Shown here piece after piece: positions 8,635 to 42,189 of a stretch of DNA of 64,000 nucleotides; position 1 is the stretch's first letter, and each line of letters starts with the position of its first letter. Position numbers and translations under genes: made by a program. The notes under the pieces are model-generated. The model saw nothing but the letters and a program-made list of their open reading frames with translations. It did not search any database and had not been told where the DNA came from. The DNA lies in the NCBI GenBank assembly GCA_016201795.1, contig JACQCF010000014.1, positions 49,648 to 113,647 on the forward strand, written 5' to 3'. The DNA comes from Candidatus Omnitrophota bacterium (lineage in GTDB: Bacteria > Omnitrophota > Gorgyraeia > Zapsychrales > Fredricksoniimonadaceae).

Positions 8635-9051
8635 ATGATTAATCAAAACAAAACTCGGTGGTTCATGCTGGCGCTGGTAGCGGCAGGGGTGACCATGTTT
8701 TTTTTGAGTTTGAAACAAAATAATCAGCCCTCCAATAAAGTGGCCCTGCAGGAGGTCGTTCAAGACCCTGTGCCTTCACCGGCGATTGTCACCAGCCCCG
8801 AAGGCGGCCAGGAGACTGGTTTTGCCGTGCAGGTCTATTCATTTGGGGATAAGAACAGGGCACAGGCAGCTTTAACCAATCTTAAAAACAATGGTTACAA
8901 GGCTTATTTGGTCATCAGCGATTTGGGACCCAAAGGGATATGGTATCGGGTGCGCATCGGTGGTTTGCAAAATGAACTCCAGGCCAGGGCCATGCTCAAT
9001 GAGGTGCGTAAAATTTATCATAGCGGCTTTATCGTCAAACCTAAAAAGTAA
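8635..9051 (+). CDS. SPOR-domain (septal peptidoglycan-binding) protein
   Basis: TM anchor followed by a C-terminal SPOR-like domain (FAVQVYSFGDKNRAQAALTNLKNNGYKAYLV...WYRVRIGGLQNELQARAML). Confidence 0.7.
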   Translation: MINQNKTRWFMLALVAAGVTMFFLSLKQNNQPSNKVALQEVVQDPVPSPAIVTSPEGGQETGFAVQVYSFGDKNRAQAALTNLKNNGYKAYLVISDLGPKGIWYRVRIGGLQNELQARAMLNEVRKIYHSGFIVKPKK

Positions 9052-13473: not shown

Positions 13474-13487
13474 CGCTTCCCAATAAT

Positions 13488-13579
13488 GCCATTGCGAGTC
13501 CCGACGATTGTATCGGGGCGAAGCAATCTTTTAATTTAGAAAGATTGCTTCAGTCGCTACGCTCCTTCGCAATGACACC
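13488..13579. repeat. REP/MITE-like imperfect palindrome built on a roughly 40-nt unit (copy 1)
   Basis: The right arm aaagattgcttcagtcgctacgctccttcgcaatgacacc is nearly identical to the reverse complement of the left arm of the 42101-42189 copy. The left arm here is a degenerate inverted copy. Confidence 0.55.
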
Positions 13580-13610
13580 AGTGAAACTTTAATAAGTTAA
13601 TGGAGGCGCT

Positions 13611-28729: not shown

Positions 28730-29911
28730 ATGAAAAGGAATTCCTTAAAACATCTTTTTTTATCTTTACTGGTTATTTTCTGCTGGGTGGCCATCCCTGT
28801 GTGTGTGGCGGCGTACACTTTTTTGACCACGACCTGGGGGGCTAAAACGGTTGTCACTCAGTTGATGAAATTTTATATGCCGCTGGCACAGGTTACCATC
28901 GGCAGTTATGAGGGAACGATTGAAAAAGGACTTTTGCTTAAAGAGGTGGCTATCCATCATATCCCCGCCATGGAGAAAGAGGATGCTCTTTATCTTCAAC
29001 AGCTTTATGTGCAGATTCCTTTGATTGATTGGCGTCAGGTATTTGTGAAAATCACCAACGGCCGTCTGGTGTTGGGTTCTTCGGACCCCATGGTGTTTAA
29101 TGGTTTGATGATCCGGGATCAAATTCAGGGTAATTGTTATGCGCGCAGTGTCGATGTGCGTCATCTGATCGCTGTGTTAGGATATCATGATTTGGCTAGA
29201 TTGTTATATGGTTTCATTAGCCACGTGGATTTGCGCGTGCAGGGAGCTGTTTTTTCCCCGTGGTTTATAGGGCATTTCTTGGTCGATCACATTACTTATA
29301 AAGGTACGCGGTTAAGCGATGGTTTTGGCCGTTTGGATTTAATGGTCAAGTCTCTGGGTCCTCATCCTTTGATGACGGGCTACGTGATCATGGATTCTGC
29401 TTTGGTGGAAACAGGACGGATCAACGTTGATTTGACCACCAGCAAAGCGGATTTTAAAGGGGATGCCTTAAACCCTCTTTTGGATATTCACGGCTCAAGC
29501 AAGGTGGAGGATATTAATATCGATATAGCCATCAAAGGTCCTTTGCAAAGGCCGCAGTTGATGTTTAATTCAGACCCGCCGTTGCCTGAAGATGAGATTA
29601 AGTTTGCTTTAGCCACTGGCAAAAGCTGGGCGGGCATCGATGATCAGTCCAGGGGGGTGGGTTTGCGTAAAAAATTAACTGACGAATTCAACGTGGGTAT
29701 GGAAGTTGAAGAGATCCCATTCCGGCCCGGACAGACACAAAATCCTGGTTATGCTAAAACTATTGAGGGGCAAATGCACGTGACCGATAAACTTTCCGTC
29801 AATATTGCCAAGAAGTTTCTTCCTGCCGACACAGCCACGACCTCAGGTACTTCCCAGCCAGAAAAAGACAACGAAGCCGAATTTTATCTTAAATATAAGC
29901 AGCGCTTTTAA
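28730..29911 (+). CDS. TamB/AsmA C-terminal (DUF490)-like membrane-anchored protein
   Basis: N-terminal TM anchor. The C-terminal beta-rich region (INIDIAIKGPLQRPQLMFNSDPPLPEDEIKFALATGKSW) resembles the TamB C-terminal domain. Confidence 0.4.
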   Translation: MKRNSLKHLFLSLLVIFCWVAIPVCVAAYTFLTTTWGAKTVVTQLMKFYMPLAQVTIGSYEGTIEKGLLLKEVAIHHIPAMEKEDALYLQQLYVQIPLIDWRQVFVKITNGRLVLGSSDPMVFNGLMIRDQIQGNCYARSVDVRHLIAVLGYHDLARLLYGFISHVDLRVQGAVFSPWFIGHFLVDHITYKGTRLSDGFGRLDLMVKSLGPHPLMTGYVIMDSALVETGRINVDLTTSKADFKGDALNPLLDIHGSSKVEDINIDIAIKGPLQRPQLMFNSDPPLPEDEIKFALATGKSWAGIDDQSRGVGLRKKLTDEFNVGMEVEEIPFRPGQTQNPGYAKTIEGQMHVTDKLSVNIAKKFLPADTATTSGTSQPEKDNEAEFYLKYKQRF

Positions 29912-29960
29912 CCGATTGATTAACTTTTTGACAACAAATGTTTAGATGTGTTTTGTCATT

Positions 29961-30063
29961 GGATTCCCTCCCCCTTTGTGGGGAGGGTAAGGGAGGGGGT
30001 ATAAAAACGATGATCTCCGTTGATCCCCCTCCCCTAGCCCCTCCCACCAGGGGATGGGAATCA
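29961..30063. repeat. Solo copy of the DUF559-associated palindromic element (no endonuclease ORF)
   Basis: ggattccctccccctttgtggggagggtaagggaggggg, a roughly 25-nt core, then tccccctcccctagcccctcccaccaggggatgggaatc. Both arms are related to the arms flanking the DUF559 gene at 1803-2205. Confidence 0.6.
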
Positions 30064-30071
30064 ACAATTGT

Positions 30072-30121
30072 TTGACAAAAATTAATTTTTTTGTATACTT
30101 AAGTATTACTTAGTAATACTT
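30072..30121 (+). promoter_or_regulatory. Sigma70-like promoter (TTGACA, 16-nt spacer, TATACT) overlapped by a 21-bp palindrome AAGTATTA-cttag-TAATACTT (candidate operator)
   Basis: ttgaca at 30072-30077, tatact at 30094-30099, and the palindrome at 30101-30121 directly before the ribosome-binding site of the RHH gene. Confidence 0.5.
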
Positions 30122-30134
30122 TCAAGGAGAAAAT

Positions 30135-30392
30135 ATGGCTAATACCAAAGACCTTGAGGTGATCACCTTTAAAGTGGATAAGGCGCTGGTGAAATTATTA
30201 AAAGGTATCCCCAACCGTTCGGAATTTATCCGGGTGGCCCTGCTGGAGGCTCTGGATAATTTGTGTCCCTTTTGCCGGGGAACCGGGGTACTTACCCCTC
30301 ATCGCAAAAAGCACTGGGATGAGTTGGCGAAACATCATGGTAAAAAAGAATGCAGACAATGTCATGAAGATGTTCTGGTGTGTTCTTCTTAG
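30135..30392 (+). CDS. Ribbon-helix-helix (CopG/NikR-type) DNA-binding protein with C-terminal Cys/His zinc-ribbon-like tail
   Basis: RHH signature (EVITFKVDKALVKLL...RSEFIRVALLEAL), then CPFCRGTG...H...H...CRQCHE. It lies first in the znuABC operon. Confidence 0.55.
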   Translation: MANTKDLEVITFKVDKALVKLLKGIPNRSEFIRVALLEALDNLCPFCRGTGVLTPHRKKHWDELAKHHGKKECRQCHEDVLVCSS

Positions 30393-31278
30393 TGGGGGGT
30401 TTTTCTTTAGTCCTGCGATTGGCTACAGCGAACCTTTAGTAAAATTAAAGGCGGTGGCCACCAACAGCATGGTGGCCAATTGGATTAAAAACATTGCCGG
30501 TGATCAGGTAGTTTTAACGACGCTGGTGGGAGCCAATGCGGATGTACATACCTTTGAACCGACGCCCTCAGACAATGTGGCTCTGGCCAAAGCGGACATC
30601 ATTTTTGAGATCGGCTTAGGGTTTGAGCATTGGATGAATCGGCTGTATGCCGCTTCAGCTTCGCGTGCCAAACGTATTGTCCTAACCGATCAAGTTGTCA
30701 GCCAGCCGCTGACTATTTTAAGATTAGGCCAAAAGCATGGTGAAGATGTAGACCCGCATGTGTGGCATAACGTACGTTATGTAATGGGTATGGTTAAACG
30801 TATGGGCAGCGCGCTGGCATCTGCTGATCCGGCCCACGCCGCTATTTATAAGGCCAATACCATATCCTATTTGAAACAGTTAGAAGCCTTAGAAGCCTGG
30901 GCCATCAGGAAAGTAGCTGAGGTTCCTCGAGAGCGGCGTAAATTGGTGACGAATCATGATAGCCTTGGTTATTTGTGCCAGCACTATGGATTTGATTTAA
31001 TCGGTGCGGCCTTTGAGTCAGCCACCACGGAGGCCGAGGACCCTTCTGCCAGAGACATCGCTCATTTGATTGATAAAATTAAAACTTCAGGAGTGCCTGT
31101 TGTTTTTGCTGAGAATATCCATAACTCTCAATTGTTAGCCTCGATAGCCCGGGAAGCGCATGTTCAATTAGCTCCGCCTTTATATACCGACGCCTTAGGA
31201 TCCCAGCCAAGCCAGGCGGATACGTATATTAAAATGATGCGTTATAACATCGAAACGATTGTCAGGATGCTTCAATGA
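30364..31278 (+). CDS. znuA: Metal (zinc/manganese) ABC transporter substrate-binding protein, TroA/ZnuA family
   Basis: Signal peptide. Cluster-9 substrate-binding-protein fold, with metal-coordinating His-containing segments DVHTFEP and DPHVWHN. Confidence 0.8.
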   Translation: MKMFWCVLLSGGFFFSPAIGYSEPLVKLKAVATNSMVANWIKNIAGDQVVLTTLVGANADVHTFEPTPSDNVALAKADIIFEIGLGFEHWMNRLYAASASRAKRIVLTDQVVSQPLTILRLGQKHGEDVDPHVWHNVRYVMGMVKRMGSALASADPAHAAIYKANTISYLKQLEALEAWAIRKVAEVPRERRKLVTNHDSLGYLCQHYGFDLIGAAFESATTEAEDPSARDIAHLIDKIKTSGVPVVFAENIHNSQLLASIAREAHVQLAPPLYTDALGSQPSQADTYIKMMRYNIETIVRMLQ

Positions 31279-41760: not shown

Positions 41761-41766
41761 AAACGT

Positions 41767-41870
41767 ATTCCCTCCCCCTTGTGGGGAGGGTTAGGGTGGG
41801 GGGGAAAAAAAGAAGCGATGATTCCTTTTAATCCCCCTCCCCTTACCCCCTCCCACCAAGGGAGGGGAAC
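41767..41870. repeat. Solo copy of the DUF559-associated palindromic element (no endonuclease ORF)
   Basis: attccctcccccttgtggggagggttagggtggggggg, a core, then atccccctccccttaccccctcccaccaagggaggggaac. It has the same architecture as 29961-30063. Confidence 0.6.
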
Positions 41871-42100
41871 CACAGTAAAAATTTTTCTAAAAACTCTTGA
41901 CATCACCTTTAACCGATGGCAGAATACATTTACTTTGACGAGGGCTAAATGTCCGAGTCGGATTTTTTCACCCTGGTGATTTGAATTTTGACTGAGAAAG
42001 GAGGGATGAGATAGAAACGGTCACAAATCATCAATATGGGGTCTATGATTGATTATTCCTAGGCTAATAGACACCTAGATATATATAGAATTCAATCCTT

Positions 42101-42189
42101 GTGTCATTGCGAAGGAGCGAAGCGACTGAAGCAATCTTTTAAAAGGATTGCTTCGCTAAAAGCAAAAAGCGACGCTCGCAATGACACAC
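42101..42189. repeat. REP/MITE-like imperfect palindrome built on a roughly 40-nt unit (copy 2)
   Basis: gtgtcattgcgaaggagcgaagcgactgaagcaatctttt plus a degenerate inverted arm. The unit has 1 mismatch against the arm at 13539-13579. Confidence 0.55.

Follow-up and report, generated by a model that had tools for sequence, protein, structure and literature searches.

BoxC/PIT/TM repeats have been known in Escherichia coli since the 1990s and are still without a known function, origin or mobilising activity. The motif, TM_ECO, reads CCCTCNCCC-N3-6-GGGNGAGGG-N3-GGGNGAGGG (Holder et al. 2015, PMC4666352). BoxC/PIT/TM_ECO has 3610 copies in 262 proteobacterial genomes, with related G/C-rich motifs in cyanobacteria, and the E. 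coli motif forms a triplex in vitro as single-stranded DNA (PMC4666352). Inverted pairs of TM_ECO always combine two subtypes, type A and type B, local variability around them is raised between E. coli strains, and no mobility-type genes were found nearby (PMC4666352). Here we describe a repeat of the same design in a 64,000-nucleotide (nt) stretch, the window, of contig JACQCF010000014.1 from a metagenome-assembled genome (MAG) of Candidatus Omnitrophota (GCA_016201795.1); protein matches likewise assign the window to a Candidatus Omnitrophica MAG. The element is a gene-less pair of arms in inverted orientation at 29962–30062, which we call the solo. It lies directly ahead of a znu promoter and is homologous, arm for arm, to the inverted pair that brackets a DUF559 nuclease gene in the same window (the DUF559 cassette). 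We think it rather probable that this homologous pair was inserted before znu and that it is a partner of the nuclease through the DNA of its arms.

In both BoxC/PIT/TM_ECO and the window repeats, a C-rich stem, a 3–6-nt loop and a G-rich stem are followed by a 3-nt loop (often TTA) and a mirror G-rich block, and both are multi-copy, intergenic, often arranged as inverted pairs of two subtypes, and present or absent between close relatives. The window arms do not match the TM_ECO pattern and are another sequence variant of the same design, with C4TC4 / G3AG4 / G4AG4 in place of CCCTCNCCC / GGGNGAGGG. They also differ in their host, an Omnitrophota MAG, and in being tied to a DUF559 nuclease gene, a link on which Holder et al. 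(2015) are silent; neither "endonuclease" nor "ycjD" appears as a word in PMC4666352. We found no paper in the open-access literature linking DUF559 to BoxC or triplex repeats. The motif class itself is known, the clean empty-site comparison in Omnitrophota is new, and the coupling of arm pairs to DUF559 genes across phyla appears to be new as well.

Bacterial miniature inverted-repeat transposable elements (MITEs), such as Correia elements and Nezha, are non-coding, about 100–150 nt long and bounded by terminal inverted repeats. The solo is like them in being small and non-coding, with terminal inverted repeats, a position beside a promoter and insertion polymorphism, and unlike them in having no clear adjoining target duplication and no transposase-encoding parent with the same ends. 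REP/REPIN doublets and their RAYT genes are similar in that short structured repeats occur as inverted doublets, a small gene is flanked by the same inverted repeats, and dispersed and gene-flanking repeats agree within a genome. The gene in the window, however, is for a Vsr-like PD-(D/E)XK-type nuclease and not an HUH/Y1 (IS200/IS605-like) transposase, and the window arms lack the GTAG-type REP consensus and have a third, mirror-repeat block. With I-Bth0305I, a Vsr-family EDxHD homing endonuclease (PMC3424549), the cassette shares a nuclease superfamily group and the placement of a gene inside a sequence that also has a gene-less form; it differs in having no intron or intein context.

The solo shares both arm types with the DUF559 cassette

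The solo is 101 nt of non-coding DNA without an open reading frame (ORF) of its own, composed of two G/C-rich arms of about 38 nt around a spacer (Table 1). An earlier, sequence-only reading of the window had noted both arms of a DUF559-associated element at 29961–30063, about 25 nt apart and just upstream of the znu promoter. Both points were borne out, with the arm limits given in Table 1 and the -35 box beginning 9 nt past the solo. Its view of the solo as a copy of that element also stands, on the strength of type-specific identity, similarity that extends beyond the arms, and a common three-block architecture.

A repeat search groups the solo arms with 1800–1844, 2167–2205, 41766–41810 and 41834–41872. 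The pattern GGGAGGGKNNAGGGNNGGGG, with at most two mismatches, finds these six arms only in the 64 kb, against 0.06 expected from shuffles, and they form three pairs, each of one left-type and one right-type arm. The blocks of the left-type arm of the cassette are C4TC4 / G3AG4 / G4AG4, and those of the right-type arm, reverse-complemented, are C3TC5 / G4AG3 / G3(A/T)G5. The same asymmetry is repeated in cassettes of other Omnitrophota and of one Chlamydiae MAG. On the + strand, the left arm of the solo is identical to the reverse complement of the cassette right arm at 35/40 positions, and the right arm of the solo, reverse-complemented, is identical to the cassette left arm at 32/40; cross-type comparisons reach 28–31/40. 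Both solos in the window, the one at 29962 and a second at 41766, are opposite in orientation to the cassette and keep the left/right distinction in the same relative order. In the alignment of solo and cassette, similarity extends about 12–18 nt past the arm on one side, to 29944–29961. BLAST matches 29950–30002 to positions 8379–8326 of L081, a comparison locus with a second copy of the cassette (89% over 55 nt, E value 8e-12). The spacers of the two solos are alike and have the core ATCATCG in common, and the resemblance of the solo spacer to the inner ends of the cassette is too weak to interpret.

The arms might instead be generic G/C-rich hairpins without a common origin, and the fold of a single arm, which is no better than that of composition-matched shuffles, is what such hairpins would give. 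The alignment, however, returned 32–35/40 same-type identity, the arms are 82–89% identical with flanks included, six pattern matches stand against 0.06 expected, and the same architecture is found at 71/93 independent loci. A chance origin, to which we give next to no credence, is refuted by the pattern count, the BLAST similarity past the arm and the 71/93 DUF559 loci.

Arms consist of three blocks and follow a mirror rule

Across loci, the sole definition of an arm was an alignment between the sequence to the left of a DUF559 gene and the reverse-complemented sequence to its right. An arm consists of a pyrimidine stem, a loop, a purine stem, a 3-nt linker and a mirror copy of the purine stem, and 126 of 142 arms contain an internal hairpin with a perfect stem of 6 bp or more. 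All four solo arms and both cassette arms in the window have a pyrimidine stem of 8–9 nt, a loop of 3–6 nt and a complementary purine stem, with one A.G mismatch within the stem of the solo arm at 30025–30062. The DNA hairpin of solo arm 1 comes to -9 kcal/mol.

Stems vary by lineage (CCCTCCCC/GGGGAGGG, CCCTCTCCC/GGGAGAGGG, CCTTCCCCC/GGGGGAAGG, CCTTTCCCC/GGGGAAAGG), and stem and mirror tail change together. The purine stem is followed by a linker of 2–3 nt and then by the mirror block, in which A is kept or becomes T, as in GGGGGAAGG then GGGATGGGGG, GGGGAAAGG then GGATAGGGGG, and GGGAGAG then GGTGAGGG. An automated test was applied to the 142 arms, 80 of which were informative (stem not itself mirror-symmetric), using a tail within 8 nt of the stem and counting G over G, and A or T over A, as matches. 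The tail was a perfect mirror in 53 of the informative arms and a perfect direct repeat in eight (8/80). Mirror fit beat direct fit in 53 arms and lost in six (sign test, 2e-10), with 30 distinct stem cores represented. When stems were paired with tails of other lineages as a swap control, the mirror fit was 14.5%. All window arms are perfect mirrors, and in a hand-picked subset 47/55 arms fit the mirror.

Two other explanations of the tail were rejected. If the tail were a second Watson-Crick partner for the pyrimidine stem, it would be a direct repeat, which only the 8/80 arms fit. A G-quadruplex is suggested by the four G-tracts of the window arms, but low-GC arms without four G3 tracts (GGGAGAG..GGTGAGGG in L009 and GGGGAAAGG..GGATAGGGGG in L019) keep the mirror, so the mirror or triplex rule, and not a G-quadruplex, explains the covariation. 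Judged by this pattern, the arm geometry is that of a predicted class II purine-motif intrastrand triplex, with an antiparallel third strand and G.GC and A/T.AT triplets. Purine-motif triplexes do not form in RNA (PMC4666352), which indicates a role at the level of DNA.

Empty sites in relatives and the origin of the solo

The solo is missing from two related loci. In the closest available relative (L096, sample ERZ27253378; TamB-like protein 81% identical), the junction reads TTTTTAA-aatag-TTTGACAgaataagatttttttgTATACTtgagtattactc (TAA-aatag-TTTGACA...TATACT). In L097 (GCA_021783915.1; TamB-like protein 63% identical), which has the gene order of the window (ATPase-YHS-MarC-TamB-RHH-znuACB), it reads TAA-TTGACA...TATACT. 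The window holds about 155 extra nt between the stop codon of the TamB-like gene and the -35 box. The simplest reading of the solo is an insertion relative to L096 and L097, a single gain where deletion would have to have happened twice and precisely.

The sequence-only reading had gone further and taken the solo for an internally deleted, non-autonomous derivative of the nuclease-carrying element, a MITE. The homologous, gene-less and inserted parts of that description hold, and the termini of the larger unit and a transposase are lacking. As a classical MITE, the solo would be an internally deleted form of the 529-nt unit around the cassette, with terminal repeats and a target duplication, moved by cut-and-paste or copy-and-paste by a transposase encoded elsewhere. 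The unit has imperfect terminal inverted repeats of about 20 nt and is flanked by a 9-bp direct repeat (Table 1). It recurs in L081, where 7902–8422 is 85% identical over 520 nt to window 1742–2261, has entirely different neighbours and is flanked by its own 9–10-bp direct repeat, ACTAACTAA(A) (shuffle p 0.007); the gene-bearing unit is independently relocated. In a further copy of the unit, L087, the gene has lost 65 nt through an internal deletion. The solo retains 12–18 nt of the unit trailer, and the 8-bp repeat TTTGACAA brackets the inserted segment and is present as a single copy at the empty site of L096.

These points are set against several others. The terminal-repeat pattern of the unit matches only 1745 and 2271 in the window and is absent from the solos. 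The two copies of TTTGACAA are 27 nt and 8 nt from the arms (shuffle p ~0.07), and no consistent target duplication was found at gene-less pairs in eight other loci. More distant cassettes share only the arm-to-arm segment 1797–2203, which makes the terminal-repeat shell a lineage-specific vehicle and arm-gene-arm the conserved core. No transposase with matching ends was seen, and the sole gene-bearing relative encodes a DUF559 nuclease. The second solo (41766–41872) is no clean insertion; it is missing in L100 and L102, which carry a different double hairpin, ATCAGCCAAAGGCTGATCCGCCTTTGGCGGAAAATTTT. We consider a classical MITE an unlikely origin for the solo.

The replacement hairpin in these two relatives is ATCAGCC(AAA/GGA)GGCTGATCCGCCTTTGGCGGAAAATTTT (L100, 2177–2215; L102, 2866–2900; compare window 41761–41885). 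At this spot, after a nuoF-like gene, one structured element replaced another.

DUF559 genes and arm pairs across bacteria

Pfam matches of the cassette ORF are to DUF559 and MTES_1575 only. Among PDB entries the closest is 3HRL (E value 6e-21), described as an "endonuclease-like protein" and uncharacterised. Residues E59, D61, H65 and D71 are invariant in 23 sequences, and a superfamily table places DUF559 together with Vsr and with a homing endonuclease of a group I intron (PMC3424549). The ORF is assigned to nucleases because of the Pfam match, the invariant E/D/H/D residues, the similarity to 3HRL and this grouping. The NCBI gene model P0001 is 99% identical to the cassette ORF and uses a TTG start; no exact-protein matches were on record for P0001 or for the ZnuA of the window. 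Beyond the end of the conserved domain, near 2163, the ORF stays open through the right arm. Homologues differ in the frame in which they read the right arm, and all three frames are used (..LPTRGRE, ..PPHKGEG, ..SPQGGGN), so its conservation lies in DNA and not in protein. At the other end of the gene, the G-rich mirror tail of the left arm (1828–1842) is also a Shine-Dalgarno sequence, with GGAGG 5 nt before the TTG start at 1840, and folding of the left arm could gate translation of the nuclease.

A flanking inverted repeat scoring at least 30 was present at 71 of 93 DUF559 loci, compared with 3/263 (1%) control positions displaced by 3–5 kb. The loci came from Omnitrophota, Patescibacteria, Chlamydiae, Elusimicrobiota, Alpha-, Beta-, Gamma- and Deltaproteobacteria, Binatia, Deinococcus, Legionella and others. 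DUF559 homologues are rare on phages (18 viral contigs) and on plasmids (45/72,556, mostly non-mobilizable megaplasmids). Further loci from viral contigs had arms in 8 of 13 testable cases. A metagenome scan with a single DUF559 protein yielded 13 loci only.

Dispersed arms agree with the arms around the gene. For arms more than 160 nt from a gene, the gene-flanking arms of the same locus were the best match in 61/177 cases, against a chance expectation of 1 in 85. Gene-less pairs occur in nine further loci, including L062, where eight copies are nearly identical and some of them repeat in tandem every 138 nt. No full-length copies of the solo subfamily of the window were found among the other comparison loci fetched by then.

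Another way to relate gene and arms is to treat the arm pairs as primary. A free-standing, homing-type DUF559 gene would then have entered the spacer of one pair, and the solo would be an unoccupied site. The fit of the ORF between the arms is exact, with its start 3 nt past the left arm and the domain end 3 nt before the right arm, and each solo has one arm of either type, ordered as in the cassette. The grouping with a homing endonuclease and the invariant E, D, H and D residues fit as well, as does E. coli ycjD, a DUF559 gene that occupies the sapF-fabI interval exactly in those lineages that are without the eefRABCD operon, which other phylogroups carry there (PMC12817139). No intron or intein features were seen, however, and the homology arms are only about 40 nt long. 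Efficient homing would convert solos, yet two solos accompany one gene copy in 64 kb. The similarity of the spacer to the inner ends of the gene is weak, and the tandem arm arrays of L062, L001 and L021 are left unexplained. On this evidence the solo is improbable as an unoccupied homing site.

In E. coli K-12 (L099, NC_000913.3 1351030–1351850), the ycjD gene ends in a degenerate arm, CCCTCTCCCtgaaagagcGAGGGGG. Past the gene there is a duplicated fragment of its own 3' end and then, about 170 nt downstream, a canonical BoxC/TM_ECO. In 60 spread E. coli genomes, those with ycjD had a median of four matching places (the ycjD locus and about three near-identical TM copies) and those without it a median of one; the comparison agrees with a link but is confounded by phylogroup and is given little weight.

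Several arrangements of arms were observed beside these. Tandem arrays of hairpin modules, with a period of about 39–70 nt, adjoin DUF559 cassettes in other Omnitrophota MAGs (L001, 9740–10630; L004, 4025–4630; L021, 9750–11895). Many of the modules are without a mirror tail, and the arrays are reminiscent of BIME-like clusters. In L020, a gene-less arm pair (8791–8918) lies within the apparent linker of a 2-oxoacid dehydrogenase E2 subunit, and the sequence just past it translates to KDRVIASPLAKRIAAEKGI; arm repeats may thus sit in frame inside coding regions. In Legionella anisa (L026, 9846–10508), the inverted repeat around the DUF559 gene measures 147 nt per side; some 45 nt of additional sequence separates its triplex-type blocks, which makes this a far larger variant of the arm.

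Neighbouring genes and the znu promoter

The solo lies between a TamB-like gene and a znu operon that begins with a ribbon-helix-helix (RHH) gene, which overlaps znuA (Table 1). According to the sequence-only reading, the solo could serve as a terminator or insulator for the TamB-like gene. More broadly, it might be retained because it terminates transcription, insulates, or stabilises RNA as a hairpin between the two transcription units. Its position between stop codon and promoter would suit such a function, the whole solo folds strongly as RNA (-63 kcal/mol, z -4.5) and as DNA (z -4.4), and where relatives have a hairpin and then AAAATTTTT, the window has the solo at 41766. The terminator claim finds no support, since there is no intrinsic-terminator pattern or T-tract in 29700–30400 and two relatives have the same gene order without the solo. 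The hairpins of one pair are each self-complementary and offset by one register (C3TC5 versus C4TC4), which points to selection on local three-block arms and not on one long hairpin. For E. coli, PMC4666352 cites Hoyne and Maher (2002) for the statement that PIT (TM_ECO) elements are without promoter and terminator activity. Retention of the solo for regulation is very unlikely in our view; its most likely status at znu is that of a passenger, neutral or mildly disruptive, and not of a dedicated regulator. Neither the window nor any of eight related loci gave an Rfam match that reached the gathering threshold, and the sub-threshold matches on the solo were generic miRNA-precursor hairpins only (16–32 bits, against thresholds of 39–100).

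A perfect 10+1+10 palindrome, AAGTATTACT-T-AGTAATACTT, is found at 30101–30121 between the -10 box and the RHH gene, and L096 and L097 retain most of it. This palindrome probably serves as the znu operator and is perhaps bound by the RHH protein, which has a Cys-rich tail.

The window also contains a second, unrelated palindromic repeat family with two gene-less copies (13487–13583 and 42098–42185). Its form is ..CATTGCGA..GAAGCAATC - loop - GATTGCTTC..TCGCAATGACAC, and its arms are 91% complementary. Repeats of this kind presumably accompany small GIY-YIG nuclease genes in other uncultured phyla.

Table 1. Coordinates of the solo, the DUF559 cassette and neighbouring features in the window
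Feature	Position	Strand	Sequence or remark
Solo arm 1	29962–29999	+	GATTCCCTCCCCCTTTGTGGGGAGGGTAAGGGAGGGGG; reverse complement of cassette right-type arm
Solo arm 1, pyrimidine stem and loop	29966–29974; 29975–29979	+	stem CCCTCCCCC; loop TTTGT
Solo arm 1, purine stem, linker and mirror tail	29980–29987; 29988–29990; 29991–29999	+	stem GGGGAGGG; linker TAA; tail GGGAGGGGG
Solo spacer	30000–30024		tataaaaacgatgatctccgttgat; 25 nt, A/T-rich
Solo arm 2	30025–30062	-	CCCCCTCCCCTAGCCCCTCCCACCAGGGGATGGGAATC as read on +; reverse complement of cassette left-type arm
Solo arm 2, blocks		-	pyrimidine stem CCCATCCCC; loop TGGT; purine stem GGGAGGGG; linker CTA; mirror tail GGGGAGGGGG
Flank outside solo arm 1	29944–29961		AGATGTGTTTTGTCATTG; resembles reverse complement of CATGTTACCAAAACTCTCT beyond cassette right arm
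8-bp direct repeat TTTGACAA, left copy	29927–29934	+	possible target duplication
8-bp direct repeat TTTGACAA, right copy	30071–30078	+	contains -35 hexamer of znu promoter
Cassette left-type arm	1800–1839	+	CCCCTCCCC / TTGT / GGGAGGGG / TTA / GGGGAGGGG
Cassette right-type arm	2167–2205	-	triplex-type motif read on - strand
DUF559 ORF (Vsr-like nuclease family)	1840–2250, alternative start 1813	+	Pfam PF04480, E value 2e-36
529-nt unit	1744–2272	+	~56-nt leader, arms and ORF, ~67-nt trailer
Terminal inverted repeats of unit, imperfect, ~20 nt	1744–1763; 2253–2272		GGTAGTATCAAAATTTTTA / reverse complement GTATTGTCAAAAATTTTTA
9-bp direct repeat CAAGAATAA	1735–1743; 2273–2281		flanks 529-nt unit; shuffle p 0.023
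Second gene-less arm pair	41766–41872	-	orientation and arm types as in solo at 29962
TamB-like ORF	28730–29911		upstream of solo; TamB domain
RHH ORF	30135–30392		downstream of solo; znuA, znuC, znuB next
znu promoter	-35 30072–30077; -10 30094–30099		TTGACA and TATACT; near-consensus, 16-nt gap

Proposed mechanism and significance

In the reading that we favour, the solo would have entered a gap of 0–6 nt between the stop codon of the TamB-like gene and the -35 box of znu, leaving the promoter intact. The arms would act as DNA and not as RNA. When an arm becomes single-stranded, for example during replication or repair, it would fold into a hairpin with a third purine strand supplied by its own strand. 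The DUF559 nuclease encoded between such arms may recognise them or cut at them, and break repair, copying or template switching could then spread or remove arm pairs. The nuclease gene would thus have the solos as its non-autonomous partners, comparable to REPIN doublets with their RAYT gene or to sites that a homing endonuclease gene has left unoccupied. We infer that the spread of the solos depends on DUF559.

The following weigh against this reading. DUF559 is a nuclease fold that is not known to have strand-transfer activity, and we found no enzymology of any DUF559 protein, which makes arm cleavage pure inference. The absence of the solo in relatives could reflect two precise deletions, these motifs being reported as deletion-prone. 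About a quarter of DUF559 loci are without arms, and the query used to rank loci included the arm-encoded tail and may enrich for right arms. Similarity of arms within a genome is expected of any repeat family and is alone no proof of coupling to the gene. By nearest-neighbour folding a single arm does no better than shuffles (z -0.5 to -1.5), so that the structure argument rests on covariation alone. The E. coli triplex was undetected in duplex DNA and by in vivo dimethyl sulfate (DMS) footprinting (PMC4666352).

For the family as a whole, we put forward only tentatively, and at less than even probability, that DUF559 nucleases are the missing protein partner of BoxC/TM-type repeats across bacteria, forming a selfish or domesticated system like REPIN/RAYT that acts through folded single-stranded DNA. 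If true, a DUF559-BoxC/TM system would explain both the spread of the repeats and the genomic instability reported around them. At the znu locus, the probable insertion is recent and either duplicated the -35 box or came to lie next to it, with the promoter preserved. If the bracketing of DUF559 genes by arms reflects a functional pair, the large DUF559 family, including E. coli YcjD and 3HRL, gains a candidate substrate, and BoxC/TM repeats gain a candidate enzyme.

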